The notes: generated by a model from the sequence alone, not told the origin. A DNA stretch of 64,000 bases from Candidatus Micrarchaeota archaeon (GCA_018812715.1 JAHJCT010000017.1:204019-268018), one strand, 5' to 3'. Shown: positions 1-36,569, counted from the stretch's first letter. Numbers and translations are program-made.

Positions 1-3000
1 CTGTTGATTCTTCTGGTTCATTTTCTCCTACCCAGCCTTCTAGTCTGCCATACATGTAATTGGCTGCAATCAACCATCCGGCATTTCTTGCCTGATCTTC
101 ATTCCAACCATAAAGATCGACGAACATTGTTGTCATATTCTGATACATTTCATCTGCTTCCTGCTCTACTACTCTGTATTCCCGAAGAAGATCGACTTCA
201 TTATATGCAACTGTTACTCCATACCCATATGTTTCATGTTCACTTGTTGGTACCTCATGCCTCCATCGTCCTCCTATTGTTGCCGGATAACCACCAATAA
301 GTCTTGCTTCCCATGAATGTGATAATGGATCTACGCGCATGCGCCTCCACATAAGTTCTCCGCTTCCATGTGCCCAATGAGTGTCCGTTACTCTTGCGGG
401 ATTTTCAGGATCTAATTCAACTGTCTGGGCTCCGCGATAGAATGCTGCATAAACATCTCTTTGTCTTCCACTTTGTAACAAGTTTGTCACTGCCATGCCA
501 GTTGCTTCTTCTATGTGTACAGGATCCATTGTACTTAGGTTTCTTACAAGCTCTCCAAAGAGAAGTGCTGAAACTGTATCTCCGTCATCTCCAGTTGGTA
601 TGGTAAATCCAACAGCAGCACCATCAAATCCAGCTGCTGCCGAATCTTCTGTGAGCATTTCACTTCCAACAAATCTTAATGAAGCAAGTATATTCTGCGT
701 ATTTACTCCCCCATAAAGGTAATTCATCAACTCTGCTTCTGTATTACGTCCAAATGCAAGCTGGTAAACATCTCCCTCTCCTGTTATGAAAAACAATCTG
801 CTTCTTATTTCTCCTTGTTCTTCCTGCAGTCTGTCTCTTGTTTGGTTTTCAATATCTTCCATTGTTATTCCATAACCTTCCAAAAGTGCATCTAATTCTT
901 CTTGTGCTGCTTCTCTGTCTTCTTCAGTTTCTCCATTTCTTGAAGTATCCAGAAGCGTATTTATATGCGAATAATTAACATCTTCAGGATTTTCGACCCC
1001 CATATCTGTTATATCATCTGATGTTAATCTCCATGTGGGAGGACCAAGAAGTTCTGGCACATAGGTACCTGCAACAAAGAAAAGCATATCTGTTCCGGAT
1101 TCTCTTGCTATCCTTTGGTATGACTCAAGCAGTCCATCTGTCCTCACAGCAGTTGTTACTTCCTCTCCTTCTACCATGCCTGTTGAACTTTCATAAGTAA
1201 ATTCTTCTCGTGCCCTGTGGATTCCTACTCCTTCTCCTCTTCTAAACGTATCAACAGGAACAAGTTGAAGTAAAGGAAGCGGGACTGGTCCAGTTAATGG
1301 ACTTGGAACACCTACTGCTTCTCCAGTATAATCGACCCTATGGCCACCAGTAACACTTTCTTCAGCTTCGGTTCTTTCTCCAGTATATTGCAGCTCCCAT
1401 CTTTCTCCGCCAGTGATGCCCCGTAATTGTCCTTCACCAAGAGCAGCACCACGTTCTGTAACACTTCCTTCTTCTCCTTCTACTGAGTAGTACATTCCTC
1501 CTTCGGCATTGCCACTTAACCAATAATCCTGATAATTCACTGGCATAGCTCCAAAGAGCTGGGTAATTCTTCTTATGATTGTAGATGAACCAAGTGCACC
1601 AATTCTATATCGTGCTGGCACGCCCATTCTGAACATTCTGTCGGTTGGAGGGCGTACTTGATCATACATGTTTGAGAATAATCCCATTGCACCTGAATCA
1701 AGTACATTCAATCCTAACATTGGTCCATTTGGCATTGTCACGCGTGGAAGCAAACTGAGTGGCTGTCCACTTTGTCCATAAAGTGTTGGCAATTGTTCTT
1801 CATCATATTGCCACCAGCCTGGTCTTTGTCTGTATAAAAATGGGCTAATGAAACCCTCATCAGTCATTGGCTCCGGAACCATACGCATTTCATCTTCTAA
1901 TCTATGATGATCAAATGTACTTGTAATTTCTGGAAGTTGTTCTCCAATTCGTCTAAATACTCCAAGGAAGTATTCTCTGTTTATTGCATTACTATACATC
2001 AGATATCTTTGACCTTCAGCATATCTTTGTGTAAACATTTGCCTGAATGCCGTCATTCCTGCAATCAGCGTCCGCTCATCCTGAGCAACTTCTAATAATG
2101 CTGGAAGAACATACAATAAATATGGGCCAACGAGATAAGGATCCCTGTGTGATATCACTAAAAGCGTGTTCATTAATTCTGTGGCTGCAGCTCTTTGGAA
2201 GGCTGATCCACTTCCAGAAATGCCCTCAAGAGCTATGCCCATATATACTGCATCTAATATTGTAAGTTCATTGCGTAATTGTTGAACATTCTCATCTGTA
2301 AATTCTCCTGTTTCAGGACTAAAACCAGTTTCATTTCTTTGTAATAGGTATTCAGTTTCCATACCTTCATAGAACGTTCTTCCGGCCCTTATCAATTGTC
2401 TTCCAGCATCTGTTTGGAAAAATCTGGCCAGTTCTTCTGGTGTAACCTCATCTTGTAAATAGTCTGGTATATCGATGTGATACTGCTGTCCAATGCGTGT
2501 AAGATTTTCTCTGAAAAGTTCAAGATTGAAATATTGATTGAAAAGATAGTTATTCTCTCCAAATTCTTGTCTGTATATGTTTACAGCCTGTTCAAAATTG
2601 GTTCCAAATTCATCACTGGGATTAGAGAATAGCAATGCATTTCTTAATCTTGCATATACGCCGGGCAATGTTCTTGCTACGTGGTCATAATTCTCCATAA
2701 AGTTTGCCCTTGTTGCCCCGGGACCCTCTTCAAATGCACTATAAAGTCTTTCCAGAGTTTCTTCAGGAATATTTTCAAGCTCACTTACTCTAGCGCTTGG
2801 TCTTTCCAAAAATCTCAATGCATTCATATTTTCATGTACAAGTGTTACAAGGTCCTCTCCATAAGCAACATTAAGCATCTGTATTCTTTCTTGGAATCTT
2901 TCATATTCTCTTGTTCCTTCTGCTGGTTCATTCAACCACACCGCATATATTGCTCCGAGTGCATAAAACAACTCTTCTCCTTGATTAAGATATGTTCTTG

Positions 3001-6000
3001 TCAAGACATCAATTGTTCTTGAATATGCAGATGAATATGCTGCCATAAGTTCTCCTCTTACATCTTCTGGCAGTTCCCTTACTTGATCTAGACCAACTTC
3101 TGATTCCAATAATGGTGCAAGATGTTCTCGTTGTGCTTCAACTGCAACTACGAACTCTTCTCCAAACAATTCAACCATTCTTGCCCTGTTTTCTTCTCCT
3201 TGTGGATTTACTAACGCACGGTGGCATCTGATTAAAATACTTGCAAAAAGAACATTTTCTCCTTGTCTTAAATCTTCTCTGGTTGTACCTGGGCTTTCTA
3301 AGAATTGTAAATGTGGCGCATGTGCTTCAACAAGCAATACGAATTCCTCTCCATAATTTCTGACCAAGTCTCTTCTGTTGCTTTCTTCCAAACCAGCATA
3401 TGTTCTTGTAAGTGCATTAAAGAATCCTCTTTCATTCATGCTTCCAACAAACTCGTATAGTTCAGGATCTGCCCCATGCAAAACACTTGCAACAATCTCT
3501 TCTACGACTGCCTGTTTTTCAGGTGTAAGACTTCCAAACCAATCTAACAATTCTCTTAACTCCTGACTGTCAACATCTACACTTACAGTTCCAATCGCTC
3601 CGGTTACCCTTGTTAAATCCCCACCAGTTTGCGCTACATGTATCAAGGAGTATGCCATTTCAACTGATCTGCGAAGTTCTTGCGGATTTAACATTGAGTC
3701 AGACAATGTTCTTTGCTCTTGCTCCAATCTCTCAAGTGATTCTGCATCGGATGTAAGTCTGGATCTTCTTACTATTTCTCTGTTTTGTATCTCCCACCTT
3801 CTTATACGCTCCAATAAAAGTGCCCTTGCTGGTTCAAGAACAGAATATTGCAATTGTCTTCTAATATCCCCAATGTCATTTGCAATAGTGTGGCTGCGTG
3901 ATTCTATTGCCCTACTCCCCTCGCCTTCGATAACTACTGTAGGTGCAGTTACCACTTCTCTTGATACCACTGGCCTTACAAATAATGTTCCAAGTGCATC
4001 TCTTGCATCGACAAGAGCAACTCCTCCTCTGTTAATCGATTGTCTTGCCCTAGCTAATGCTGCCACCAATTGTACTGGGCCATATGAGTAAATTCTTCCT
4101 GCCCTCAATTCTCTTGTAGTTTCATCAGTCCTTTCTTGCAAAGCTGTTTCTATGCTCTGGACATCCCCAGAGAGCCATTCTAATTCAGCGCGATTTGTTT
4201 CAACAAAACCAACAAGTTCTTCCCCATATCGACTAACAAGCCTGCTTCTGTCTGTGCTATTTTCGTAAATATCATGCAGTGCAATTGCAAATGTCCCATA
4301 GGTATATCCAATGTTTTGCTGTATTTGTGTAACAACAGCGTCTTCACTTCTTGTGCGCATACCTTCTTCTATTTGTTCTATTGGAAGTACTAACCAATGA
4401 AGATTTTCTATATTTGTTTCAACAAAATTAACAAACTCTTCCCCATATCTGCTAACTAGTTCTGCCCTTCTTTCCCTCATTGTTTGTACTTCACTATATG
4501 CTTGCGTGAGGACAGTGCCAGCATTATTACCATATCTGCTTATCAGAGCAGTTGCGAGCGGATCTGCTTCTTCTCCTCTGCGGGTTCTTGTTCTTCTTTC
4601 AAGTTCTCCTTGGGCATCAGCAGGACTCATGTCAGCAACCCATGAAAGCTGATCAAAATTTTCTTCAACTGTTTGCATTTCTTGAACAACGTTATGCCCT
4701 ATTGTTCCTTCTTGCACTAATCTTGCATTTCCTCTTATTCTCTCCTCACGCAAGGCACTATAAACTTCTATTAATGCAGCTCCCCTATTTTCAACATCTA
4801 TTTCCAGAAGTTGAAGTGCTAGTGTATCCTCAAACCCAACTCTTCTACTCAGTTCTCTTTCGGCTTGCGTTCCATCTCTCATTAACCAGTCAATTCTGCT
4901 ATTTTGTATTATTACATTGACAAGCTCAGGTCCATAGTCAGTTCTTAATCTGTCAAGATCTGGAGTTTCTCTTGCCAGTTCAGTATAAATATCTCTTATT
5001 GCAATCGGGAGAATGTTTCTGCCAAATCCTCTTATGATCGCTGCTAATGTTTCATCATTATTTAGTTCAGCCCTATATAATGCTTGGAATTCATTCCAGA
5101 ATGTCTCATTCTCCTCTATTGGTCTACCAAGGAATCTTCCATTGAGTATTCCTCTAAATTCATTGCTTGCCTGCTGACTTCCAGTTGCAATAACCTCATT
5201 CATTAATCTGATTGCATGTCCTGCTTGTCCTCTTGCAACAATGTCAAGTAATGGTCCAATTACCTGCTCGTTCATCTGCGTTATTTCTGTATCGCTAACA
5301 TCTCTCCTTAGTACATCGCGCATAAAGCGTTGAACATGCGCATCTACATCCTGTCTTGTACCAGTTATGGCAAGATTATATACTTCTCGAACTAGTGTTG
5401 CAAATTCGCCGGGCTCTATCCCACTCATAATTCTGTTATAATTCTGTGTTATACTTGCTAAACCAGATGCTGTATCATTGTATATTCTTTCACGAAACTG
5501 TTCTGTAAATGCATCTGTAAATTCATCACTTGTATTTGCATTCCATATTCTTACAAATTCATCTCTACTTGTTTGATCGCCAGTAAGTATGAAATTCCTA
5601 AGATGATCTATTGCTATTCTTGCCTGTTCTGCTGGCATGCTTGTTATAACTAATTGTGTAAGATTCTCTCCATATCGTGCAGAAAGTTCTTCTACTGCCG
5701 CTCTTTGCAATTCTTTTCTTACAGCATTATCAATGGTATATCCTTCTTCCATCAATGCTCTTACTCTTCCGACATCAGTATCTGCCCTTACTGCTGTGCT
5801 GGTTTCTACTCTTTCCCTTAATTCATCTACTGCATCATTATTAGGAATACTTCTTGCCAATCCAGCTCTTATATTATACAACGTATCGATGAAGTCAACC
5901 ATAACAACAGGTTCTAATGGCCTTCTATCCTCTCTATAAGCCTCTAAAAGAGCACTCACTTGCGGATCTTCTCTAACCCGTTCCATTTCTTCAGAAAAGT

Positions 6001-6349
6001 GAGCCATAAAAGTAGCATTTTCATTTAATGGAGCTCCTCTGAAATCTTCATTATATATTCTCCAAAACAAGTCTCGTTGTGATTCGTTTCCAGTGATTAC
6101 ATAATTCCTATAAGCGTCAGCAGCTTCAGTGCCTCTTTGCTGAAGATACGTGACGTCCTCTGCTTCAATACGTCCCTGTTCTGCCATAGCTTCATTACCC
6201 CCGAAGTAGTTTATATTGGTAACGGTACCTACGCCAATGCTTGCAGAGAGAAAATACTTCATCCATCTCGAACGCTTTACCCGATCAAGAATGCCTTCAC
6301 GGCGAATCGTCTCTCGCTGTTCGCTATAACAAAGTTTTGCTCCTGCCAT
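1..6349 (-). CDS. giant protein A, partial (>2116 aa; continues beyond window start), unknown function
   Basis: ATG at 6349 with an in-frame stop just upstream (6353-6355). The track shows no complete minus-strand ORF between 1 and 6421, consistent with one frame running off the edge. I hand-translated both ends: N-term MAGAKLCYSEQRETIRREGILDRVKRSRWMKYFLSASIGVGTVTNINYF, window end ...LYGWNEDQARNAGWLIAANYMYGRLEGWVGENEPEEST. At least 8 in-frame copies of an RYGEEFV-type motif. Confidence 0.8.
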   Translation of the reverse strand, partial: MAGAKLCYSEQRETIRREGILDRVKRSRWMKYFLSASIGVGTVTNINYFGGNEAMAEQGRIEAEDVTYLQQRGTEAADAYRNYVITGNESQRDLFWRIYNEDFRGAPLNENATFMAHFSEEMERVREDPQVSALLEAYREDRRPLEPVVMVDFIDTLYNIRAGLARSIPNNDAVDELRERVETSTAVRADTDVGRVRALMEEGYTIDNAVRKELQRAAVEELSARYGENLTQLVITSMPAEQARIAIDHLRNFILTGDQTSRDEFVRIWNANTSDEFTDAFTEQFRERIYNDTASGLASITQNYNRIMSGIEPGEFATLVREVYNLAITGTRQDVDAHVQRFMRDVLRRDVSDTEITQMNEQVIGPLLDIVARGQAGHAIRLMNEVIATGSQQASNEFRGILNGRFLGRPIEENETFWNEFQALYRAELNNDETLAAIIRGFGRNILPIAIRDIYTELARETPDLDRLRTDYGPELVNVIIQNSRIDWLMRDGTQAERELSRRVGFEDTLALQLLEIDVENRGAALIEVYSALREERIRGNARLVQEGTIGHNVVQEMQTVEENFDQLSWVADMSPADAQGELERRTRTRRGEEADPLATALISRYGNNAGTVLTQAYSEVQTMRERRAELVSRYGEEFVNFVETNIENLHWLVLPIEQIEEGMRTRSEDAVVTQIQQNIGYTYGTFAIALHDIYENSTDRSRLVSRYGEELVGFVETNRAELEWLSGDVQSIETALQERTDETTRELRAGRIYSYGPVQLVAALARARQSINRGGVALVDARDALGTLFVRPVVSREVVTAPTVVIEGEGSRAIESRSHTIANDIGDIRRQLQYSVLEPARALLLERIRRWEIQNREIVRRSRLTSDAESLERLEQEQRTLSDSMLNPQELRRSVEMAYSLIHVAQTGGDLTRVTGAIGTVSVDVDSQELRELLDWFGSLTPEKQAVVEEIVASVLHGADPELYEFVGSMNERGFFNALTRTYAGLEESNRRDLVRNYGEEFVLLVEAHAPHLQFLESPGTTREDLRQGENVLFASILIRCHRALVNPQGEENRARMVELFGEEFVVAVEAQREHLAPLLESEVGLDQVRELPEDVRGELMAAYSSAYSRTIDVLTRTYLNQGEELFYALGAIYAVWLNEPAEGTREYERFQERIQMLNVAYGEDLVTLVHENMNALRFLERPSARVSELENIPEETLERLYSAFEEGPGATRANFMENYDHVARTLPGVYARLRNALLFSNPSDEFGTNFEQAVNIYRQEFGENNYLFNQYFNLELFRENLTRIGQQYHIDIPDYLQDEVTPEELARFFQTDAGRQLIRAGRTFYEGMETEYLLQRNETGFSPETGEFTDENVQQLRNELTILDAVYMGIALEGISGSGSAFQRAAATELMNTLLVISHRDPYLVGPYLLYVLPALLEVAQDERTLIAGMTAFRQMFTQRYAEGQRYLMYSNAINREYFLGVFRRIGEQLPEITSTFDHHRLEDEMRMVPEPMTDEGFISPFLYRQRPGWWQYDEEQLPTLYGQSGQPLSLLPRVTMPNGPMLGLNVLDSGAMGLFSNMYDQVRPPTDRMFRMGVPARYRIGALGSSTIIRRITQLFGAMPVNYQDYWLSGNAEGGMYYSVEGEEGSVTERGAALGEGQLRGITGGERWELQYTGERTEAEESVTGGHRVDYTGEAVGVPSPLTGPVPLPLLQLVPVDTFRRGEGVGIHRAREEFTYESSTGMVEGEEVTTAVRTDGLLESYQRIARESGTDMLFFVAGTYVPELLGPPTWRLTSDDITDMGVENPEDVNYSHINTLLDTSRNGETEEDREAAQEELDALLEGYGITMEDIENQTRDRLQEEQGEIRSRLFFITGEGDVYQLAFGRNTEAELMNYLYGGVNTQNILASLRFVGSEMLTEDSAAAGFDGAAVGFTIPTGDDGDTVSALLFGELVRNLSTMDPVHIEEATGMAVTNLLQSGRQRDVYAAFYRGAQTVELDPENPARVTDTHWAHGSGELMWRRMRVDPLSHSWEARLIGGYPATIGGRWRHEVPTSEHETYGYGVTVAYNEVDLLREYRVVEQEADEMYQNMTTMFVDLYGWNEDQARNAGWLIAANYMYGRLEGWVGENEPEEST

Positions 6350-6421
6350 TGACTAACTACCTTTGTATTTATTGTGTTAAGAAAGCTTAAAAAGAGGTGT
6401 CACAATAAGGATTTTCAGGGA

Positions 6422-6688
6422 TTATCCTACCCCCAAAAATTTCTCATATTCTTTGTGGTCGCCAATAAAATAAAATTTCCGAGTTTTTATTCTTTCTTCT
6501 GAAACAAAAAGCACACGATATTGCCCGATCTCATCAACAAAGAATTCAAGACCATATTTTTCATGTCTAAAGCCATGCGTAGGGAATATTTTATATTTGT
6601 CTCTACGTTTCATAAATCTCTTTTGGATATCTGGCGGAAGCTTGTCAAAATAATTTTTCCAGGCTTCATCATATTCAAGGATGTACAT
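6422..6688 (-). CDS. RelE/ParE-family type II toxin-like protein
   Basis: 88 aa. The C-terminal pattern GQYRVLFVSEERIKTRKFYFIGDHKEY resembles the RelE/ParE core. It lies 9 nt downstream of a small partner ORF. Confidence 0.55.
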   Translation of the reverse strand: MYILEYDEAWKNYFDKLPPDIQKRFMKRRDKYKIFPTHGFRHEKYGLEFFVDEIGQYRVLFVSEERIKTRKFYFIGDHKEYEKFLGVG

Positions 6689-6697
6689 TTATCTCAT

Positions 6698-6922
6698 CTA
6701 TAAAAGATGTTGATATTTACCTGTAAATTCTTCATCGCCAATTGTTTTCCTTTTTCCTTTTTTTGCTTCTTCATGAAGTTCTTTAAGTACTTTTATTGCC
6801 TTTTTATCTTCAAGTGGCCTTACTCCCAACCTTTCATGAACTTCCTCTTCTAAGTAATTGATAATATCTCTGCATTTAAGTAGTTCTTCATACTCTTGCT
6901 TAGATATTTTGATATACTCCAT
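6698..6922 (-). CDS. putative antitoxin partner (74 aa, charged helical protein)
   Basis: Small ORF immediately upstream of the RelE-like gene on the same strand. No family recognised. Confidence 0.35.
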   Translation of the reverse strand: MEYIKISKQEYEELLKCRDIINYLEEEVHERLGVRPLEDKKAIKVLKELHEEAKKGKRKTIGDEEFTGKYQHLL

Positions 6923-6967
6923 TTTATTTCACAGTTATATTATGATTCAGCTCTTTAAAAATCATTA

Positions 6968-8533
6968 TCATTCTATTTGCAATACTCTTCTGCGCCTTGT
7001 CCCTTCATCTTGTGGTTGCGCTTCTGGCACTGTGACGTTTGGTATGCTCCTTGCCCAATCCCCAACAGTGGAAGTATGGTGATTCATTCTCCACGTATAA
7101 ACAGAAATAGCAGAAAGTGTTCTCATATCTATTATTCCATTAACATGAAGATCTGTTCGTGGAGTTCCTAATATGCTGTTATATAATAAGTTAAGATCTC
7201 CATTGAGGCTGTCAAACCATTCTTCATCTGTTCTAGTTGCTGAGAAATTTATGAATGCCTGCACTGCCCTTGCTACTAATCTTCTATCCGTGTCTGATGT
7301 GGTACTTCTTAAGCGTGTCGCTTCTCTTCCAACAGTTGCATATTCATCATGACTTTGTACAAATGCTAAAAACACCTCATCTTCATGCAGGTAGTCATTG
7401 AATATTCTCATAAAAGCATCATATACATCAGTTCTCTCTAATTCAGTTAATGCACTTTCTAAGGAATCGTATCCTTCCGGAAGAGTGCGCATGAGTGTTA
7501 TTATTGCCTCTGGCCTTCCCTGTTGCACTCCTTGATATAATTCAGTACTAAGATTGGCCCAATGGCTTTCAGCAAATTGTTGCAGTGGGGTTTGTCGTAC
7601 TTCGACTGCTAATACTTCTGTAGCTTGCCATACATCAATACTATCCTGGCTTACACCAGTTCCTGTTTCCAAATACCATCTTCTCAAATATAATGCAGCG
7701 GCTGTAAGTGTATCTGCATCCATTGCTACAGTACGGTATGTTCTGAGACTTTGCTCATTTCCAATTCTTGTATGAATCTCTGGTAATTGATCTATCTCTT
7801 GATGATATCTTGCATAATTTTCACGTGCTGCTTCAAATTCAAGAAGATAATACCGGGTAAAAGCAAGTGCTGTGTTTACCAAATTAGCATCTGCATTTAT
7901 CGCAAGTGTTGGGGGTTCTCCTTGTTCTGTCATATATGCCTGAAGCGCAGCATAATTCCCTCCTTCTCTTCCAGCAACAGATGAAAGGAATAATCTGAAT
8001 CTTGGTATTTGATAAAATTCATTGAAAATTGTAACTGCTGCTCCTCTTCTGTTTTCATCTGTAGAAAGAAATTGCTGAATGCGATCTCTGTTAGTGTGCA
8101 AGGTATTTACAGCATTCAATGCATCTGTGCTTCCTCTTGCTCTTAATTGCATTTGAATCCAATCAGTTGAAATTGTTGGTATTGGAGGTTGTTCTTCTAC
8201 TGTTTCTTCTCTTCTTTCTCGTCTGGGCCTTCTCTCACGCCTTGGTGCAGGTTCTTCTACAGCTGGTTCTTCTACTACAGGCTGAGGGTGCAGTTCTCCA
8301 TAAATACGTGTAGCTATTGCCGCTACATTTAATCCATCAATAGCATCAAAATCCTGATCTGCACATCTTCCGCTTGCCCAGTTTTTAGCGCGTCTCAGTT
8401 CTCCTTGCAGATCTTCAACGCTCATTTGATCGTTTACAGTTACTCCTGTGTTATACCTTCTTGCCTCTCCTTCTCCACCTGTACAAACTATTACTATCGT
8501 ATTATTTCGAAGCGTTACTCTGGCATCAACCAT
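6968..8533 (-). CDS. 521-aa Arg/Glu-rich, Lys-depleted protein of unknown function (giant-gene cluster member)
   Basis: ATG at 8533 shares one base with the TAA of the upstream 2854-aa gene (TAATG). PRRERRPRRERRE linker. Only one Lys by my count. The segment EDEVFLAFVQSHDEY resembles the repeat motif of protein A. Confidence 0.8.
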   Translation of the reverse strand: MVDARVTLRNNTIVIVCTGGEGEARRYNTGVTVNDQMSVEDLQGELRRAKNWASGRCADQDFDAIDGLNVAAIATRIYGELHPQPVVEEPAVEEPAPRRERRPRRERREETVEEQPPIPTISTDWIQMQLRARGSTDALNAVNTLHTNRDRIQQFLSTDENRRGAAVTIFNEFYQIPRFRLFLSSVAGREGGNYAALQAYMTEQGEPPTLAINADANLVNTALAFTRYYLLEFEAARENYARYHQEIDQLPEIHTRIGNEQSLRTYRTVAMDADTLTAAALYLRRWYLETGTGVSQDSIDVWQATEVLAVEVRQTPLQQFAESHWANLSTELYQGVQQGRPEAIITLMRTLPEGYDSLESALTELERTDVYDAFMRIFNDYLHEDEVFLAFVQSHDEYATVGREATRLRSTTSDTDRRLVARAVQAFINFSATRTDEEWFDSLNGDLNLLYNSILGTPRTDLHVNGIIDMRTLSAISVYTWRMNHHTSTVGDWARSIPNVTVPEAQPQDEGTRRRRVLQIE

Positions 8534-14500: not shown

Positions 14501-17097
14501 GCTTGTTCATATTCTCTTAAATTTCCACTAAAAGCCGCTTCTCTAAGTTCTTCAAGATCACTTCTTAAGCTATGCAATGGATAATCTCTGGCTATTGTTA
14601 AATCGCGCTCCCCATGACTTCTTTCATAACCTCTTATCTGTTCAGCAGTAACATATGCTGGAAATGTTCCATCCTCATTTCTTTCACCGAGTGGAATTTG
14701 TCCGGCTTCTACACCTTCTGCTATCGGCTCTCTTCCCCAGTAAATACCTGTTAATCTGTTATAATCAGCAATAAGCATTTCTGTTTGTACGATTCTTCTT
14801 GTTCCTCTATCAAACTGTTGTGCAGCTGCATAATGCTCTTCATCTGTTCCTGCATGCATTTCCATTTCTATTGCTTCAAGCATTATCCTTCTGCCTCTTC
14901 TGTATCCATATGGCACTTCTTCAGTTCCTTCTCGAATCATGCGTTCATGAGTAAATAGTTCATATCTCCAGCCTTCCTCTCTTCCTCCTTCAGCTGCACC
15001 ATAATAATCTCTTATATATTGCAGCAATAGATTTGCTCCCCGATAATCTCCAGCTTCGACTCTTTCTCTTACAATTCCTAATGCTTCATTTATTGTTGTT
15101 CTCCCAACTCCTCTTCTTTGTGCAAATGTCTCCAATCTGTTTGCTTCTGCTTCTATGTAAACTATCTGCGCTAAGTTGAAGCTTTCCATGAAGGCACCAT
15201 CATCACCTGGTTCGCCTTGTGCCATAGCCTGCAATTGTGTCTCCATTCCACTTAGGTGTATTGCATTTTCATCCGTAATTCTGGTGACTCTTCCATTGCT
15301 TACTACTCCAAGCCTTTGCACAGAATCAACATACATTGCAAGAAGTGTAAGTACTCTTGCTGCTTCTTGTGCATTCCCTTGTCTTGCAAGTTCTTCTGCA
15401 CGTTCAAGTGTTTGATTTACTATCCCTATCTGGAAAGTCATTCTTCTTGAACTCCAGTTTTCAATCAGTTCTCTGAATTGATCTGTTTCTCCTCTAACCT
15501 GGTGGTAAATCATTCCTATATTGAACTGCTCACTGGCATCTTCTCCTGCCATTTCACTTTGAAGTGCTTGTTCTATTGTTTCGCGTCCTTCCCAATCCCC
15601 CCAGCGATGCCCTTCATTTCTGTCATAATAAAATGAAATCATGTAAAGTAATCTTCTTGCTCCTTCGAAATCACCAAGCTTGAATCTTTCATCTGCAATG
15701 GCTGCTGCATTTCTGATAAGTTCTCTTCTCTCTTGCCCTCTTCTTCCTGTAATTGCTTGGAACCCTTCAATATCTACAAGCATGTGTGCCATGTCCATTT
15801 CAGTTGAATACTGTGCAAGCATTGATGAAGTAGGGCTTCTTCCTTCAATTATTATATTATATATTGTCTGATAACTCGGCAGATAATCTACTGCATGCCT
15901 ATCTAATTGTCTTGCAGACCGTTCAAGCAATCCTAAAGAAATGGCAAGTGCTGCAAGATTTCTATCTCCTCTTTGCAGTGCATCAAGTGCCTGTTGACCA
16001 TACCATTCCGGACTTTCTTCTGTTACTCTTCCTGTTCCACGTAAACTAGTAGCAATCATAGTCAGGTTTGCATCTCTTTCTTCTTCGCTTAATGGCATCT
16101 CTCTTCCAATTGTCATGAAATAGCTGGTTGTAATTCTTTCAAATTCCAACTGACCAATTATTTGTCCTTGTTCAAGTCTTCTGATTATTTCATCTAGTTC
16201 ATGCCTGAGATTTTCCATTTGCTGTCTCATCTGTTCATTTGTCTGTTGTTCTATTGCAAGTGCTATCTCATCTCTCCATTGGCTGAAGACTGTTGTGTTT
16301 ATCTCAGTCCATTGGTCCTTTATTGTTCCTATATTAGCTTCAAAAGACCAAAGCGATTGTCTATCTTCATGTTCCTGTTCACTAGTATACCCAATCCTTT
16401 GCCTCCCCTGGTTTCCTCTCTCCACTATAAAACCAAAGAGTGCATTTCTTTCCATTTCTACAGCTGAATTGTCGATATTGTAAATAGGAATATTCTCAAC
16501 GTACAATCTCCCTGCTTTTAGTACTGCCTCTGCTCTGCCGTGATTTGTTGTTGCAATATCTAATACAGAAGCTTCCAGGCTATCAAAAATAGTTTCAAGT
16601 GCATCTTCTGATTCCACGCCAGGAATCTGAATATTTTCAGGCATGCCCCCCGTTAGCATATGTAATTCTATATCAAATACATCTCCGACTGTTCTGAGCA
16701 TTGCCCTTGATCTTGTTATCATGTGGAATGATGCAGCAATGTTTCCTTCTCCACCAGTTGTTCTTGCATCATTTAATATCTGCTGAACTAAATCGAGTTC
16801 ATCCGTATACCTTTCTCCAAGTATTGGCAGTGCAGTTACTCTTAATCTCACTTGTTCCAATGTTTCTTCTGTTCTTTCTACTTCTGAATTAATGTATTCA
16901 ATAGTTGCATCATCAGGCCTGACAGTTAAGGTTCGCGCATGATCCTGGAGTGCACTAATCTCTCCAAGCACTTCATCCAATCCCTGTTCTAATTCTCTTC
17001 TTTGTTCATCCATTGCTTCTATTCTTGTTGGAATGATTGCAATTGGTAATCGTGTAATCTCCTCCTCTTCAGGTCTTTCTATTGTTGTTCCTCCCAT
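8533..17097 (-). CDS. giant protein B (2854 aa), unknown function, with a central multi-pass hydrophobic block and a conserved C-terminal domain
   Basis: Uninterrupted 8.5-kb ORF with ATG at 17097 and a strong SD. Helical TPR-like repeats (GDYRGANLLLQYIRDYY, GDFEGARRLLYMISFYY, GRFQEAEEAYEAAIDH). About 5 hydrophobic helices around aa 1235-1400. Trp-rich segment AIAWYVIGNYAWDNVLLPWY. C-terminal YRLLTS...YGLTVSGEGE domain shared with the 1463-aa protein. Confidence 0.9.
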   Translation of the reverse strand: MGGTTIERPEEEEITRLPIAIIPTRIEAMDEQRRELEQGLDEVLGEISALQDHARTLTVRPDDATIEYINSEVERTEETLEQVRLRVTALPILGERYTDELDLVQQILNDARTTGGEGNIAASFHMITRSRAMLRTVGDVFDIELHMLTGGMPENIQIPGVESEDALETIFDSLEASVLDIATTNHGRAEAVLKAGRLYVENIPIYNIDNSAVEMERNALFGFIVERGNQGRQRIGYTSEQEHEDRQSLWSFEANIGTIKDQWTEINTTVFSQWRDEIALAIEQQTNEQMRQQMENLRHELDEIIRRLEQGQIIGQLEFERITTSYFMTIGREMPLSEEERDANLTMIATSLRGTGRVTEESPEWYGQQALDALQRGDRNLAALAISLGLLERSARQLDRHAVDYLPSYQTIYNIIIEGRSPTSSMLAQYSTEMDMAHMLVDIEGFQAITGRRGQERRELIRNAAAIADERFKLGDFEGARRLLYMISFYYDRNEGHRWGDWEGRETIEQALQSEMAGEDASEQFNIGMIYHQVRGETDQFRELIENWSSRRMTFQIGIVNQTLERAEELARQGNAQEAARVLTLLAMYVDSVQRLGVVSNGRVTRITDENAIHLSGMETQLQAMAQGEPGDDGAFMESFNLAQIVYIEAEANRLETFAQRRGVGRTTINEALGIVRERVEAGDYRGANLLLQYIRDYYGAAEGGREEGWRYELFTHERMIREGTEEVPYGYRRGRRIMLEAIEMEMHAGTDEEHYAAAQQFDRGTRRIVQTEMLIADYNRLTGIYWGREPIAEGVEAGQIPLGERNEDGTFPAYVTAEQIRGYERSHGERDLTIARDYPLHSLRSDLEELREAAFSGNLREYEQASETYWNRLSLIATRVHRRSTVVDAEVILRQGNDALTEAFRAYVINMCGGGTTGERAWQTAWDYGHDVGAFTTTSNGLSLMADYIEQHPETFGAVSDLEMGRLRQVIYLSTEVDALLTQMDGIEYTTDDLPIYGEGLRGGTVMSYLLELVQGESRAAMAYSQIGQQIEVNDEYLRMIRIGGGDRFSLAEDNLRDCNTDLQRAQNLILEGRFQEAEEAYEAAIDHRITAMASYEGRSAMNLTATGIENFLEGAERLGEAIFFPEDFAEFMRSEPDRSYWDAYREMQTDSMHYILFGRGGSGSQERMQLDLNGARIVEASIFAIPADSGSQMFAEYAVDQGNVYALVGMGRFDDANAIIDRMQERVADHQFWTTVGLTAVGVVACLVPGGQLFGGSLFATMAFDQIVTEYRVQGEASWTSWLMFGGIIATMGIGGLAGVLRTEAQFAQGTAYATRMTQVVRALNYTNIGIGVGFSGYMGYHAVDAFSEGNMREGIFLTAMAAFPWAHMAGSRGWQAMRARPVRGTTEARTETELVAEEIRAPEPREVPIEIEPNEIPSVREAQRLRTPEEMFEFMRELRSEDPTVRDGAQARLRTLPEEVQGRIMQFMETGSIGNTSFMHVPEALVTGEMTPLARGNMTSVIDMIFRGPEPPTPGPRGGRPVTEVESTGTLQPGRLDWLLEGLLTPEGTTARENVVHRAAAQQTLENIRAENPEVAEIIDGLIRNPSVRHYFETGEATPFSQRALENARSQIEAMFEPEAVAMAVNDYNYYIEDVVASEMARRPHLVEGEGPMMIRQMPEVRAMAEEGGARPPGVQQGGIGPVDTTVGGGQGGGGGPVRPIPEVRWGRFERMYRFGRERWQNWRSDRVERNARAELPEAEEVLSTTGEGVRNTLDMVLDPELAQLEISRARTRATELEVRVEELREGGARPEEIRVAEQEAQTARTEAVELENLLNSSPQRIADIMKSLYDTAQTARGETSGYWNLLRRIYSRPNVRAQLETLAETDPVLRDILNRTGRTIESGARNAGISPEDYMAVQAREGFSANDVEVMIRAIEAQRGELAPLLRTQELLGIEYTPLERASLLPRLEGSDIIPPQMLVRELAGVQNSVEGRIREIPIADEPVTNVIRRTLLERSSQGGNVNDVLTEILRSPEVERAVRERYGREAAEIYRDAVQNNRTVDEILNVLEQGRAVEGAEPQFVPREMRTPLEGFVRNISQDPAFAQEFSAINALRPRINQVLDQASTAADVFARDTRPLRDDAINIGWRILRFLNNWEPLTNWGARRFVNSIRNAVPGGRIRAGLRNSPYLIPQAIAWYVIGNYAWDNVLLPWYNSLNSAGSVEEGRRLCERDFGNLCAGASDEDLEWLATEEGRRFFFHMPNALPRGRDRRPGNVEDLNQLLQRTDILIEPRRLGEIVADGREMGGRLDDINDLLSDMRRGDAEDRREAELAAILEPWGLTVDDVQGILSQERKEEVDITDLFDLRIPQWRERGLVIDFRDAVADAFCVDTGLISEGEAESGRYTREGGQRVDFLTSNTDVFAYLWEAVQGGHIPSVYLDNIMNDLTSEGRITELRQQVTSERDIYQVLEAHLRSQNLYIEVIEEDGTVTGIRQNSFLGLLDVRASLDPGFRDTYEQLLNQYRENNEALLAFNAFNIEDIRYGEENRVIGGDAIYGNPQELAALILESETPGEAVEAARQRGFVGSAVLGYMEPRLFDPENAHLVTFIAERSDEERLGFVRWLLDHRDNIRGHVLEIIEDASQHSTVPGPGRYTEIYEYLDRRATVYRSNGWWDGATPAEEQAREERERSRGTVTREETVEPVGEEFEAQYVRRPGFEVMTPRREDQIDVEEVHAPPATLSPEAQRFYANEESTLTPLLDGTIDRMIEARNDDGTLTEDAQAMVNAYGPEINSEDAETRERARDVVRADIKAEMYRLLTSTIDRDMQLREGYGLTVSGEGEGLSVEVDRRTARNGLRNHIMQYVSRRGER

Positions 17098-17101
17098 TTT
17101 T

Positions 17102-17108
17102 TCACCTC
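17102..17108 (-). promoter_or_regulatory. Shine-Dalgarno-like GAGGTGA upstream of the giant protein B start
   Basis: The minus strand reads GAGGTGAAAAAATG. The element overlaps the TGA of the preceding small ORF. Confidence 0.5.
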
Positions 17109-17421
17109 AAGTATATTCCTTACACATAAGTACAAAATCCTGCAGCCTCTCAAGTCTCGCCTTTTCATTATCTTTTCCTTTCACTGCTTTTTTCTGCCAT
17201 TCAACCAGCTCATCATGGAATTTTCTTATTTTTTCTATCTGTGGCTCCATACTCCTGCTTTTTACCTTTGAAGCCTCCCATTTTGCAAGGAATTTTTCTA
17301 TTACAGTAATAGTATGATTTACCCTGTTTATTGTATTTTTTTCAACAGAAGCAGCATCAGTCTTAACAGGTATTTTCTTCTTGGAGATTTTTTTCTTTTT
17401 TGAAGATTTTTTCTTAGCCAT
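17107..17421 (-). CDS. small Lys-rich protein (104 aa from the ATG), unknown function
   Basis: ATG at 17421 is preceded by AGGTG (the track start at 17430 is GTG). MAKKKSSKKKKISKKKIPVK N-terminus. Composition is typical of the host genome, unlike its giant neighbours. Confidence 0.5.
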   Translation of the reverse strand: MAKKKSSKKKKISKKKIPVKTDAASVEKNTINRVNHTITVIEKFLAKWEASKVKSRSMEPQIEKIRKFHDELVEWQKKAVKGKDNEKARLERLQDFVLMCKEYT

Positions 17422-17511
17422 CAGAAGCACCTAAAAATTTATGGCGCTCCAACTTTATAAATTTGTACTATTTCACATAGAATTAGAAAAATATTATAAA
17501 AAATAAAAGAA

Positions 17512-20500
17512 TTATTCATTTTCTCTGCCTACAAAGCTCAGAGTGTGTCTCTCTATGCCTCTTCTGGCTCTTCCCATATCTGTTATTTGAACAGCGAACT
17601 CTTCGCCTTCACCACTTACAGTGAGTCCATAGTCAGTACGGTGCTGTACGTCCCTTCGTATATCACTTGTAAGAAGTCTATACCACTCTGCTCTTATTGC
17701 CATTTCAGTTTGTTCTCTGTTCCCTTCAAATGCACTTCTTAGCAATTGACCGTCTTCTCCTTCATCAGTGAAGAGCCTTTCCAGGGTTCCGTCCAACATG
17801 CTGTTAAAGTCATTTTCAATAGTATAGAACTGTTGAGCCTCAGCGTTCAATTCTGTACCACTTCTCTCAGTTCCAGTTCCTCTAAATCTTTCTACTTCAT
17901 TGATGTATCCTGTATCAACAGCCCACTGTACACGAACACCTTGTGGATCTGAGAATGGATTATAGTCAGATACATTTCCACCATCTGCTTTGTGCCTTTG
18001 CAGTTCTTCAACAAATTCTTCAAGACGGTATCTGTTGAGTCTGTATCGTGCACCTCTGGTATCGACAAAGCTTGTCAGGAGCTCTCTTATATCCTGGTTT
18101 GTTGGCGCAAGAAGAGTGTATGCCATGCTATCTGAAATATCAAATTCAGAAAGTTCTCTTCTTAACTCCCTTCTTGCATATTGTTCAGAGGTATCTTCAA
18201 CCCATCCATTTGTTCTTGCAGTTGCCATTGCTTCATTGAATGTTTCTTCTAACATTACATCAGTTACAGGAACACGTCTTGTTTGCAATGTTTGTCCTTC
18301 CCCAGCTCTTGCTTGTGTTTTTTCTTCCCAAAGAGTAACAAATGCTTCTCTATTTTCTGGTTTGAGGTACTCGGTATGCTCTCCCCTTTCAGCCACTAAT
18401 GGAAGCATAAGTCTTCCTACTCTATCTCTTCCTTGTGCAAAGACAAAATCCACTAATCCAAGATCTGCTATATTATAATTATCCATTACTCTTTCTTGTT
18501 GCTCAGATACGAGGAATCCTCTTTCTACCCATTGCCTTGTATGTTCATTCATATAGTCATAGTCAACTGTTGCCCTCGTTCCCTCTTGTGCCATTAAATA
18601 ATCAACAAATTCATTTGTCATATTCCTGTTGAGTTTAAGGCCATCGGTTATCACAGTATATTCTACATCGATTATACAACAGAACTGATTTCCTGATTCC
18701 CATTCATCTTCAATTGCTAGTGGTTCCCAGTTTTCTACATCATCCATACTTTCAATACCAAGTTCTCTGCATGAATTAGGTATTACTAATCCCGGTGTTG
18801 CTGGAGGCCTTTCAACTGCTTCTCCTGTTCCCTCGGCTACTTCATTAGTTCCTTCAGCTACCTCGCCAGTTCCTTCTGCATTTTCTTCTCTAGGCGGAGG
18901 TTGTGCTCTAGAGGTAGAACCTGCACTTGTTTCCTGAGAACAATTAGCTATGTCATCATCATCCAGTTCGTTTACATCTCTAACATGTTTCAATGTTCTT
19001 CTCTCTTGGAAGAATGTAAGAACACCTTCATTATCATGTTCAACTTGATTATCCCTTAGCCAGTCTAATCTTTCCTCACCTGTAACTCCATATGCAGTTG
19101 TGTAATAACTATCCTCTCTTTCTGCAAGTCGTTCTGGAATGTCGTAACTATCATTTATCATTCTCTTATTTGAGAGCTCACCTTGCATCGGAGACCACCA
19201 TTCCCAAGGTGCTCGGTCGAAGTGGTTTCCAAAATGATTAAAGCTCCAACGCCATGGCATCGCATTCCATGAGAATGGATTGTACCAATGACCTGTAGTT
19301 GATGTACCAATGCGATAGGTCCAAGGTTTGTACCATGCTCCGTTTGGTGTTGTTGTCATCCATTCATTTGGTGATGTGAACCATGCAACACCAAAAGATC
19401 CTATCAAGTATGCTTTGAGTGCTCCTTTCCAAAGTCCCCTCAACCATCTCGGGTAATGTTGGTATGTGTGAGCCTTTCCTGTAATTGGATTTCTACCAAC
19501 AACTTGCTTATTCCAATTTCGTTTCTTAAGATCATCAACTGTTTCTCCAAAGCCCCAACTTGAAAGTCTTCTAAGACGCCCACCTCTAAAATTACCTTGT
19601 GACTTTCCTATCCATGCTTCGCTTGTAAATAATCTCCAGAACCATTTATCTTTGAACTTTTGCCATTTTCCTACAGTTACTTTTGGAGACGGATCCCAGC
19701 TTTCTTTTGTAGCTTCCCAGATCGTTCTTGCTATAACAAATTGACCTTGAGGTATTTCACCTAAGTTTTCAGCAGTTCTTTTATGAAGCATTTCAACTGA
19801 TTTTTCAGCTGCTTTTCCTAATGGCTTGGAATACTTATTTTCTATTTTTACCAGCATCTCTTCTAATGAAGCACGAGGATACTTTCTAGTTTCTATTGCC
19901 TTTACAACTGTCAGCATTCTTTTTCTTACTTCATCAGGCAATTCTGCTCCTTCTACTTTTGTTCTTAATGCAGTTGCTTTTGTATCAAATGCTTCAAGCT
20001 TATATCTGAAAAGTTCTTCGCTTTCACCTTTACCTTTTCGTTCTTGTATCACTGCATCATATTCTGCTTTAGTAATACTTCTTGCTCTAAGCAGTTCATC
20101 CAATTGTTCTGCAGTTTTTGTTCTCAATCCTTGTTCTGTTGAAGGAATACCAAACAATTGCTGGCAGTCGTCCATACGATCAAGAACTTTCTTTGTATCT
20201 TTCATCAATTCACTGATAACTGGATTGCCTAGCCACTCTCCTGCTCTATTTGGAAGTTCATGAATTAATTCTGTACTCACTTCTCTGCAGTCAAGCATAT
20301 GCTTTTTGAAGTTTTCAGAGTATGTCCGTACTACATTTTCAAATCTGCCATTTTCAGTTCCTTGTATTCCACCTAATTCTGCTGAAAGTGTATCAAATAT
20401 TTCTTTTGCTTGAGTATACTCGTCCTCTATTCTCGCCCCCCTAGCAGACAAACTCAGTCCACGGGTATTAAATTCACTAATTCGCTGTCTTGCAATTACT

Positions 20501-21903
20501 AATTCTTGTTCTGCAGTATCCTTCTCTTCAGTAGCTTTTCTTTCTGCATCCTCAATCTGTTTTTGTGTTGCTTTTGCCTTTCCTTCTGCAACAAGCTGTT
20601 TTAGTTTTACAACTTTATCATACTGTTCTGTTTTTTCTACAACAGTTGCTTCGGCTCGTTCAACCAGTCTCTCTGCATCTGCCCTTTCGTTTCTAAATTC
20701 TGAAATTTCGTCATCTATTGCATCTACTCTTGCTGCACTTTCTTCCATGACGCTTTCAGCAGCAGCTCTCCGTACCATCATGTCTTCAACAGTTTGTCGT
20801 TGGCTTGGTCTGCATGGTCCAAATCCTTCAACATCAACAAAATGACCTGTTCCTGGAATACCTAGCCCTTCAACTGTCTCATTTGTAGGTGTTAAAAGAA
20901 TTGCACGAACGAATTGCCTGAAATTATCTGCAGCCATATCTATTGCTATAGATGTTCTTGATTCAAGATAAGCATCCACATAACTTCCATCAAGTACACG
21001 ACGATTAGTTTCTTGAGTATTCTCCGAGTCCATGCTTCTGGTCCCAGAAAGTTGCTTTAAAACACTACCTATGAATTCTCCTTCTTTTCCTGGGCTGAGT
21101 CTTTGTGCGACATTTTCAAGAAATCTAAAGAATGCGTCTGGAGGTAACGCTACTCCTTCTGGCCATGTTTCATGAGTCCACAATGATTCATATAATTTAT
21201 CTCCCCTTTCATCTCTTACACAATTTCCTTGTTCATCTTCTTGCTCAATCGGATTCCCCTTATCATCTAATTTAAATCTAGATCCGATCATTTGCGAATA
21301 AATAATATCAATTCTATCAGCATCAAAATCTTCGACTCTTCCTTCACTTAACTCTTGAGCAAGTCTTTGCCTTACGGCATACATTCTTTCTGCATACGCA
21401 GTATCAAGTTCTTCAAGCGGTGTCGGCACCGTCGGTTTCTTCAACCCATCAATAAATTCTTTTCTGCATACAATCTCTCTTATAAGCATATCAAAGCCAG
21501 AACTTGTCCTGCCCTGTCCTCTTCGTATTGCATCTACCAATTCTAATGTAAATTTAGTCAAATACTCTGCATTTGCTGTATCAGCACCGCTTTGCGGGGT
21601 TCCTCCGGCACCATGCCGTGTATCTTTATCTTGCCCTCGTTCTCCTCTCAGTTCTTTTAATCTTTCTTCTTTAGCAAATTCAATTCTTGCGTCTTTATCT
21701 GCTCTTTTTCGAGCTTTATGATCTTTTCTTAATTCAGGACTTAATGCAGCCCCCAGAACGGGCACTCTCTCTGCCATATATTTGTAACTCTTTGCAGAGC
21801 GACTTTCTCCACCTCTTGCCCAATCAAATACTCTTTGCCTTATACCAGCTTTCTCAGCCTGTTTATCTCTTCCCTGAGCCCTATCTATAACACTACCCGT
21901 CAT
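17512..21903 (-). CDS. giant protein C (1463 aa), unknown function, with coiled-coil N-terminal part, extremely Trp-rich segment and conserved C-terminal domain
   Basis: ATG at 21903 with GGAGG 12 nt upstream. About 18 Trp in ~150 aa (KWQKFKDKWFWRLF...PWRWSFNHFGNHFDRAPWEWW). C-terminal AEWYRLLTSDIRRDVQHRTDYGLTVSGEGE matches protein B. Confidence 0.9.
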   Translation of the reverse strand: MTGSVIDRAQGRDKQAEKAGIRQRVFDWARGGESRSAKSYKYMAERVPVLGAALSPELRKDHKARKRADKDARIEFAKEERLKELRGERGQDKDTRHGAGGTPQSGADTANAEYLTKFTLELVDAIRRGQGRTSSGFDMLIREIVCRKEFIDGLKKPTVPTPLEELDTAYAERMYAVRQRLAQELSEGRVEDFDADRIDIIYSQMIGSRFKLDDKGNPIEQEDEQGNCVRDERGDKLYESLWTHETWPEGVALPPDAFFRFLENVAQRLSPGKEGEFIGSVLKQLSGTRSMDSENTQETNRRVLDGSYVDAYLESRTSIAIDMAADNFRQFVRAILLTPTNETVEGLGIPGTGHFVDVEGFGPCRPSQRQTVEDMMVRRAAAESVMEESAARVDAIDDEISEFRNERADAERLVERAEATVVEKTEQYDKVVKLKQLVAEGKAKATQKQIEDAERKATEEKDTAEQELVIARQRISEFNTRGLSLSARGARIEDEYTQAKEIFDTLSAELGGIQGTENGRFENVVRTYSENFKKHMLDCREVSTELIHELPNRAGEWLGNPVISELMKDTKKVLDRMDDCQQLFGIPSTEQGLRTKTAEQLDELLRARSITKAEYDAVIQERKGKGESEELFRYKLEAFDTKATALRTKVEGAELPDEVRKRMLTVVKAIETRKYPRASLEEMLVKIENKYSKPLGKAAEKSVEMLHKRTAENLGEIPQGQFVIARTIWEATKESWDPSPKVTVGKWQKFKDKWFWRLFTSEAWIGKSQGNFRGGRLRRLSSWGFGETVDDLKKRNWNKQVVGRNPITGKAHTYQHYPRWLRGLWKGALKAYLIGSFGVAWFTSPNEWMTTTPNGAWYKPWTYRIGTSTTGHWYNPFSWNAMPWRWSFNHFGNHFDRAPWEWWSPMQGELSNKRMINDSYDIPERLAEREDSYYTTAYGVTGEERLDWLRDNQVEHDNEGVLTFFQERRTLKHVRDVNELDDDDIANCSQETSAGSTSRAQPPPREENAEGTGEVAEGTNEVAEGTGEAVERPPATPGLVIPNSCRELGIESMDDVENWEPLAIEDEWESGNQFCCIIDVEYTVITDGLKLNRNMTNEFVDYLMAQEGTRATVDYDYMNEHTRQWVERGFLVSEQQERVMDNYNIADLGLVDFVFAQGRDRVGRLMLPLVAERGEHTEYLKPENREAFVTLWEEKTQARAGEGQTLQTRRVPVTDVMLEETFNEAMATARTNGWVEDTSEQYARRELRRELSEFDISDSMAYTLLAPTNQDIRELLTSFVDTRGARYRLNRYRLEEFVEELQRHKADGGNVSDYNPFSDPQGVRVQWAVDTGYINEVERFRGTGTERSGTELNAEAQQFYTIENDFNSMLDGTLERLFTDEGEDGQLLRSAFEGNREQTEMAIRAEWYRLLTSDIRRDVQHRTDYGLTVSGEGEEFAVQITDMGRARRGIERHTLSFVGRENE
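18820..18882 (-). repeat. three tandem 21-bp units encoding (V)AEGTxE heptads inside giant protein C
   Basis: Plus-strand units ttctcctgttccctcggctac / ttcattagttccttcagctac / ctcgccagttccttctgcatt. Protein reads AEGTGEVAEGTNEVAEGTGEA. Confidence 0.7.
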
Positions 21904-21990
21904 TTTTTCTAAGCCTCCAGTTATTACATTAAATAGTAAATAATGTGGCTAAAACTCTTTAAAAAAGTATGTTTCAGTGGTTTTACATGG

Positions 21991-36251: not shown

Positions 36252-36296
36252 CTTGAAAATAAATTTTCAAGATCAGCCAACTTTGCATAAGCAAAG
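36252..36296. terminator. two AT-rich perfect hairpins between convergent transcription units
   Basis: cttgaaaat-aa-attttcaag (36252-36271) and ctttgc-ataa-gcaaag (36281-36296), bracketed by the direct repeat agtgggctttc (36239-36249 and 36295-36305). Confidence 0.35.
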
Positions 36297-36548: not shown

Positions 36549-36569
36549 ATTATTATAACGAAATTCTCC

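Follow-up and report, generated by a model that had tools for sequence, protein, structure and literature searches.

To our knowledge, no molecular machinery for host attachment or uptake is known in Micrarchaeota. The SPEARE proteins of Nanohaloarchaeum antarcticus reportedly unite serine protease, adhesion, and restriction-endonuclease domains in one giant protein. Like the large murein-transglycosylase proteins of Woese- and Pacearchaeota (PMC8204110), they are very large, lineage specific, and encoded by host-dependent archaea with small genomes, and they are predicted to be membrane associated or exported, with host attachment proposed but not proven. Here, we report a five-gene cluster with the same traits (genes C, small basic protein, B, mid, and A) in a 64,000-nucleotide stretch (the window) of Candidatus Micrarchaeota archaeon (GCA_018812715.1, JAHJCT010000017.1:204019-268018). 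Its products have no sequence or domain relation to those giants, which are defined by protease, adhesion, nuclease, or transglycosylase domains; Pfam detected none of these in the cluster, and a SPEARE-type identity was rejected because protease, nuclease, and adhesion domains are missing. A SPEARE-type system is a single giant multidomain protein, whereas the cluster is a conserved multigene unit of four unrelated families.

The surface layer (S-layer) of Sulfolobales (SlaA/SlaB) offers a second likeness, in that an exported acidic outer protein and a membrane-anchored partner are encoded by adjacent genes. Compared with S-layers (SlaA/SlaB and SLP_Mh of Micrarchaeum), the cluster differs in having no S-layer domain match, in protein sizes 3 to 8 times larger, and in five genes versus two. 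Bridge-like lipid transfer proteins (VPS13, TamB, AsmA) resemble it in giant size, in the beta-rich C-terminal half of A, and in a possible membrane-to-membrane role in an organism needing foreign lipids. We take this resemblance as no more than a lead. Pfam profiles for Chorein_N, AsmA, and TamB did not match the cluster proteins, and the model available for the C-terminal part of A has a mean predicted local distance difference test (pLDDT) score of 50.

With its conserved order and position, a giant protein that would be exported, and giants that would be membrane anchored, the cluster is a concrete candidate for a DPANN host-interaction apparatus. Tentatively, we read it as encoding a lineage-specific, membrane-anchored envelope complex of ~0.9 MDa with a host-contact or uptake role. 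That function is the most attractive one because a cultured Micrarchaeon depends on host lipids and cell contact (PMC8975820). The genome, probably near 1 Mb (an assumed size), invests ~23 kb in the cluster. Should the host-contact idea prove mistaken, the cluster still offers new protein families and folds, clearly under selection, in a phylum that has received little study.

Gene content and conservation

All five genes are co-directional on the minus strand, occupy ~96% of window positions 1 to 21,990 as coding sequence, and as a whole take up ~23 kb encoding ~0.9 MDa of protein. By the open reading frame (ORF) list they are gene C (17512 to 21903; 1463 amino acids [aa], 168 kDa, pI 5.1), the small basic protein gene (17107 to 17421; 104 aa, pI 10.0), gene B (8533 to 17097; 2854 aa, 322 kDa, pI 4.7), the mid gene (6968 to 8533; 521 aa, pI 5.0), and gene A (2 to 6349, residues 1 to 2116 of 2824, frame open to the window edge; 321 kDa, pI 4.6). 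Read from a GTG, the small ORF (17107 to 17430) gives 107 aa; judged by homologue N-termini, its start is most likely the ATG at 17421. A, B, and C are exact matches to proteins annotated by NCBI as hypothetical (KKB44_03040, KKB44_03060, and KKB44_03070, respectively) in a metagenome-assembled genome (MAG) of a Candidatus Micrarchaeota archaeon, where they lie on a contig of 301,896 bp.

The original prediction, made from the window's sequence with its origin withheld, had described ORFs of 521, 2854, and 1463 aa, a truncated A, and a small ORF, and had supposed a small-genome archaeon; all of these ORFs are present, and the source is of that kind. The regulatory features it listed were found as well: a stop/start overlap at the B/mid junction (cgtTAATGgtt), a GAGGTGA 5 nt before the ATG of B, between that codon and the small-protein stop codon, and AT-rich TATA-like boxes upstream of the small ORF, C, and A. 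Artifactual ORFs, the objection it had raised against itself, can be set aside: frameshifts and chimerism are excluded because collinear full-length homologues occur in independent assemblies from NCBI, JGI, ENA, and Logan.

In independent Micrarchaeota assemblies, the genes again run FtsY–C–small–B–mid–A–Trm56–phosphoglucomutase, with a C-like protein of 1380 aa, small proteins of 103 to 147 aa, B-like proteins of 2900 to 3260 aa, a mid protein of 553 to 833 aa between B and A, and A-like proteins of 2790 to 2880 aa. Beyond A, a small ORF, Trm56, and phosphoglucomutase lie on the opposite strand. Synteny is conserved across at least 10 independent Micrarchaeota loci, and the gene arrangement whose conservation had been left to a homologue search is kept, with B-mid-A and C present in independent loci. 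A scan of one genome per GTDB species returned 11 loci, mostly from Micrarchaeota/Micrarchaeia including Ca. Bilamarchaeum, the other titles being one "Candidatus ainarchaeum sp." and two "archaeon"; B-mid-A is retained in most of these 11 genomes. A HMMER search of 1.84 billion cluster representatives with a profile of the last 755 aa of B (E ≤ 1e-3) gave 69 matching representatives, and all named ones were Micrarchaeota hypothetical proteins.

Adjacency of B, mid, and A is kept wherever upstream sequence exists, except at two loci where another ORF of >1200 aa precedes A (L011, 3 to 3692; L017, 1 to 3921). These ORFs match no B, mid, or C profile and no Pfam family; the one in L017 contains an A-like "YGDAFV" repeat motif. 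In the divergent locus L019 (1420 to 8656 and 15582 to 16916), B is apparently split into two genes (716 and 1099 aa), followed by a mid-like gene of 573 aa, with an A-like N-terminus ~7 kb further on, past unrelated genes. In L012, from a Ca. Bilamarchaeum MAG, a gene downstream of the cluster (14167 to 19260, minus strand) encodes a 1698-aa protein whose N-terminus has the signal-like …NQAMA before EP. Its similarity to A is weak (E = 1e-12), and it may be an A-family paralogue.

Identity between the window and locus L001 is 60% for FtsY, 50% for the small protein, 44% for A, 35% for mid, 34% for B, and 28% for C. The cluster proteins diverge faster than the housekeeping FtsY yet stay full length and collinear, and the cluster is Micrarchaeota specific and vertically inherited. 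In our judgment, this conservation makes the finding firmer than sequence alone could.

Protein A

From its ATG at 6349, the frame of A runs 2117 codons to the window edge. The remainder was recovered from a 100% match (P0005), giving a full length of 2824 aa, of which residues 2117 to 2824, including the true C-terminus, lie beyond the window. Eleven homologues (40 to 57% identity) are ~2750 to 3030 aa long.

Residues 1 to 56 (6182 to 6349, minus strand) resemble a signal peptide, in a layout common to A-family N-termini once the upstream extensions in L001 to L017 are included: an Arg/Lys-rich region, then a G/A/T-rich hydrophobic stretch of 12 to 22 residues, and a conserved motif, (S/T)N(L/I)NxxG(G/P)NxAMA, directly before QP (EQ in the window copy). 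The Sec elements (basic n-region, hydrophobic h-region, and small residues before the cleavage site, AMA) are all present and conserved in the family, and the c-region is unusually long. The N-terminus has a signal-like layout, as if of a cleavable signal peptide, and A may be cleaved after AMA.

A helical repeat of ~60 aa (consensus RLxxxYGEEFVxxVExxxxxLxWL) occupies residues ~450 to 1198 (2756 to 5002, minus strand) in six copies, detected by regular expression and by a repeat hidden Markov model (HMM); two further copies (residues 2293 to 2441) lie beyond the window. Every A-family member has 8 to 10 copies, hhalign relates the repeat blocks to each other at 92 to 99.6% probability, and the repeat HMM has no match in B, C, or mid. 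Helical repeats extend to about residue 1500; a Pro/Gly-rich segment comes next, and then beta-rich regions with two more repeats between them. An internal duplication of the beta-rich parts was looked for and not found. AlphaFold2 modeling of residues 1840 to 2824 with 9 sequences gave a mean pLDDT of 50, with only the helical-repeat part confident. The best Foldseek match of this low-confidence model in the PDB was microsomal triglyceride transfer protein (E = 0.024; template modeling [TM] score, 0.08), which is not significant, and the Foldseek search of the C-terminal 985 aa is uninformative because the model is poor.

Proteins B and C and their common terminal domain

In protein B (homologues P0002 to P0004), residues 1 to 1230 form at least six helical units of ~100 aa. 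They are followed by a cluster of hydrophobic helices at residues 1234 to 1375 (12973 to 13398, minus strand), found by Kyte-Doolittle (KD) scans in all B-family members and conserved in the alignment. Of its five helices, three have strong hydrophobicity, and the last is followed by an enrichment in K+R; the cluster putatively comprises 3 to 5 transmembrane helices. A long helical region leads on to a Trp/aromatic-rich amphipathic helix (residues 2162 to 2184; 10546 to 10614, minus strand) preceded in the family alignment by an Arg-rich stretch; with a mean KD of 0.44 and upstream K+R of 3.0 versus D+E of 0.6, it may be a further membrane helix. Best conserved in the family is the C-terminal domain, residues 2233 to 2854 (8536 to 10401, minus strand). 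Its AlphaFold2 model (622 aa, 19 sequences) is mostly alpha-helical, with a mean pLDDT of 86 and a predicted TM score of 0.64; Foldseek against predicted viral structures (BFVD) gave no fold match (best E = 0.33), and on present evidence the modeled domain appears to have no solved structural neighbor.

Full-length homologues of protein C are the 1380-aa protein of L001 and P0067, P0070, P0072, P0075, and P0081. Its N-terminal half is coiled-coil-like. A hydrophobic helix conserved in the C-family alignment (residues 831 to 851; 19351 to 19413, minus strand) lies within a Trp-rich block (740 to 910), has a mean KD of 0.79 with upstream K+R of 3.1 versus D+E of 0.4, and is a putative single membrane anchor.

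B and C end in a common terminal domain, at residues 2724 to 2851 of B (8545 to 8928, minus strand) and 1352 to 1461 of C (17521 to 17850, minus strand). BLASTP of B against C matched the last ~130 aa only (40% identity; E = 4e-17). Profile-profile comparison of the family alignments paired B 2691 to 2850 with C 1323 to 1460 at 97% probability, and hhalign with deeper alignments (14 B-like and 7 C-like sequences) reached 98.9% (E = 2e-17; 109 columns). The HMMER profile of the last 755 aa of B likewise matches C and five other C-family proteins at the terminal domain only.

These comparisons contradict most of what the original prediction had proposed, in which A, B, and C looked like members of one family, paralogous along the C-terminal ~750 aa. 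B and C are related only through their last ~110 to 135 aa. The collinear extension suggested by PQWRERG/RQWVERG, one of the proposed anchors, was not significant in two rounds of profile-profile comparison (E = 0.02 to 0.04). The L.WL of a second anchor, EDLEWL/ERLDWL, recurs in A within its own 60-aa repeat, which B and C do not have. BLASTP of A against B gave one 49-aa match (E = 8e-4), and profile-profile comparison found no significant similarity of A to B, C, or mid. By these measures A, B, C, and mid each belong to a family of their own, and the only link among them is the B/C terminal domain. Of the architecture claimed for all three giants, one element stands: in both B and C, a hydrophobic helix rich in aromatic residues is conserved several hundred residues ahead of the terminal domain.

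Mid and small basic proteins

Mid begins with a conserved motif resembling a beta-hairpin and also has a linker rich in Pro and Arg as well as helical domains. In about half of the relatives, six in all (L001, L005, L012, L014, L015, and L018), it carries an SGNH/GDSL insert (PF13472, Lipase_GDSL_2) that exceeds the Pfam gathering score (E = 1e-13 to 5e-20) and keeps the GDS, GxN, and DxxH blocks; these long-form proteins are 787 to 833 aa, with one cut copy of 662 aa. The insert's closest solved structures are the Bacteroides GDSL-like acylhydrolases 4iyj and 4ppy and acetyl xylan esterases. It resembles SGNH/GDSL hydrolases in score and in its GDS, Gly, Asn, and DxxH blocks and differs from them in sitting within a nonhomologous protein of ~550 aa. 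The window mid is a short form with no SGNH match, the alignment showing the entire insert to be missing, and an SGNH hydrolase identity was rejected for it while being found in the six relatives.

The small protein has a helical domain, which ends in RLxDFVxxCxxY(S/T), and a tail rich in Lys. It lies directly upstream of B in L001, L002, and L003, with ~50% identity.

Searches against known families

Searches of Pfam, NCBIfam, PHROGs, PADLOC, and PDB sequences, the last with single proteins and with family profiles, gave no significant match for any of the five proteins; in Pfam and NCBIfam there was no match above E 0.008. Pfam likewise gave nothing significant for four divergent relatives of B and for three further giant ORFs at related loci, and literature searches for giant or large Micrarchaeota proteins yielded no description of the family. 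A motif scan of all five products found no Walker A, HExxH, or CxxC motif, in line with the earlier reading by eye for the first two, and the absence of any recognized family also bears that reading out. An SMC-like or coiled-coil ATPase was rejected for want of a Walker A motif in the five proteins and of an SMC or AAA match in Pfam. A known giant adhesin (RTX, Ig-like, cadherin, or beta-helix) was rejected too, as no such domains were found and the A repeats are a family-specific 60-aa helical unit. By these searches, the cluster lies outside every known family tested, which means no detectable relation to known systems and not a demonstrated new mechanism.

Proposed complex and alternatives

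The five genes probably encode one large envelope complex. Physical association, as opposed to four proteins acting independently, is suggested by the combination of a putatively exported A, putatively membrane-anchored B and C with a common terminal domain, and an accessory protein often bearing an esterase, and also by translationally coupled, co-directional genes in strictly conserved order. In such a complex, B (with 3 to 5 hydrophobic helices) and C (with one) would sit in the cytoplasmic membrane, with their N-terminal parts, which are long and helical or coiled-coil, on the cytoplasmic side. Provided that the late helices are membrane spanning, the C-terminal parts of B and C would possibly be outside the cell and dock A, with the ~110-aa terminal domain as a common docking or assembly module. 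A would be exported via its signal-like segment and held at the surface, its helical repeats forming an extended stalk and its beta-rich C-terminal modules touching a partner or host cell at its envelope. As for mid, it would be an accessory subunit to which many lineages add SGNH esterase activity, which probably would de-O-acetylate or deacylate a surface glycan or lipid.

A bolder form of this proposal is a trans-envelope nanomachine specific to Micrarchaeota, of ~0.9 MDa and with novel folds, that bridges to the host and mediates uptake of host material such as lipids; we consider it unlikely, and if true, it would be the Micrarchaeota counterpart of a DPANN host-interaction apparatus.

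The topology signals would fit equally well a structural envelope scaffold (an anchoring system, sheath, or second surface layer) without a host-contact role, in which A would form an outer layer and B and C membrane stalks, after the manner of two-component S-layers whose stalk protein is anchored in the membrane. Such a scaffold would suit the acidity of A and B (pI 4.6 to 4.7) and their few cysteines, both as in S-layer proteins, as well as the housekeeping neighborhood and vertical inheritance, and early cryo-electron microscopy of Micrarchaeota described two surrounding layers (discussed in bioRxiv 10.1101/2021.04.28.441871). The published Micrarchaeum S-layer protein, SLP_Mh, is however a different protein, of 101 kDa with recognized S-layer domains and unrelated to the cluster proteins; A, B, and C have no S-layer domain match, 320 kDa is far above the usual S-layer range of 40 to 200 kDa, and divergence is faster than that of FtsY (28 to 44% versus 60% identity). 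We rate this explanation as rather unlikely. An archaeal S-layer protein as such was rejected, given no S-layer profile match in Pfam or NCBIfam and the ~320 kDa of A and B.

Hydropathy scans and inspection of N-termini found no Sec signal peptide in B or C, as originally predicted, and none is present in mid or the small protein. Together with the helical repeats and coiled-coil-like stretches that dominate A 60 to 1500, B 1 to 1230, and C 380 to 720, and with the pI of 10 of the small protein, as in nucleic-acid- or membrane-binding cytoplasmic proteins, this would fit a mainly cytoplasmic, membrane-tethered scaffold (cytoskeleton-like, or for division or membrane shaping) with B as anchor and the hydrophobic segment of A uncleaved or unused. 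No cluster protein, however, has an NTPase motif, the conserved AMA-(Q/E)P after the hydrophobic stretch of A resembles a signal-peptidase site, and an SGNH esterase insert would be more usual in an enzyme outside the cytoplasm. A cytoplasmic scaffold seems unlikely. Some of the probability falls to explanations other than those considered here.

Several points weigh against the host-contact envelope complex itself. Its function is one that we infer, and giant hypothetical proteins are common in these lineages. The topology of B and C is predicted from hydropathy and charge counts only, and B helices H2, H4, and H6 and the C helix are moderately hydrophobic (KD, 0.4 to 0.8). A signal peptide is missing from every product except A, so large parts of the complex may be cytoplasmic. 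In A, the gap of ~13 residues from the hydrophobic stretch to AMA is longer than in typical Sec signals, and the beta-rich "contact modules" are conjecture, given the model's pLDDT of 50. Esterase activity is not essential to the system, because the window mid is without the esterase. For the apparatus first suggested for this locus, conserved synteny supports its dedicated nature, and the hydrophobic helices of B and C and the signal-like N-terminus of A support membrane association; the functions suggested with it (cell-cell or host contact, scaffold, or effector system) are conjectural.

Insertions and mobile elements

Two toxin-antitoxin (TA)-type pairs lie beside or inside the window cluster. 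Between mid and A, in an intergenic region whose two-gene insert the original prediction had overlooked, are a RelE-like toxin gene (6422 to 6688, minus strand; 88 aa; PHROG phrog_1213, E = 3.6e-5) and, directly upstream, a putative antitoxin ORF (6698 to 6922, minus strand; 74 aa) assigned by position only and with no PADLOC match. The pair (6422 to 6922) is missing at that position in loci L001 to L007. Between FtsY and gene C, an MNT/HEPN-like pair (21991 to 22966, minus strand) comprises a nucleotidyltransferase (PF18765/PF01909) and, overlapping it, an ORF of 145 aa with a match to PDC-M05B, a PADLOC candidate-defense family (E = 2e-16); in L001, the C-like gene directly follows FtsY without this pair. 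Both are lineage-specific insertions outside the conserved cluster.

Such pairs, and giant genes without known function, would be expected if the locus were a mobile-element or virus remnant or cargo (tape-measure-like or virion) or a polymorphic toxin/effector system. Against this stand the same FtsY–Trm56 chromosomal position in divergent lineages, the absence of the TA pairs from homologous loci, and C-termini that are conserved, not polymorphic, with no toxin or immunity domain. The cluster proteins had no significant PHROG match, the model of the B C-terminal domain had no BFVD fold match, tblastn with A and B as queries gave none in 50,697 phage records, and an IMG/VR scan found no locus. 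This origin is largely refuted and very improbable, and viral structural, tape-measure, or mobile-cargo candidates were rejected on the missing matches and the conserved chromosomal synteny.

Other features of the window

Around the cluster lie housekeeping genes of archaeal type (FtsY, CDC48, HerA, ELP3, and an Obg-like GTPase). Over window positions 1 to 30000, GC skew (~-0.2 to -0.29) and AT skew on the plus strand both stay strongly negative throughout, consistent with purine-rich coding strands in a long run of minus-strand genes. ARAGORN found no tRNA gene within the 64-kb window. A signal recognition particle (SRP) RNA at 36296 to 36550 (minus strand) scored best with the Rfam bacterial large SRP model RF01854 (65 bits; gathering score, 60), not with an archaeal SRP model. 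Two other large proteins have right-handed beta-helix/NosD repeats, one of 1189 aa (56459 to 60028, minus strand) with seven Beta_helix stretches (E = 2e-88) and one of 1021 aa (30797 to 33862, plus strand); both are probably surface proteins unrelated to the cluster.

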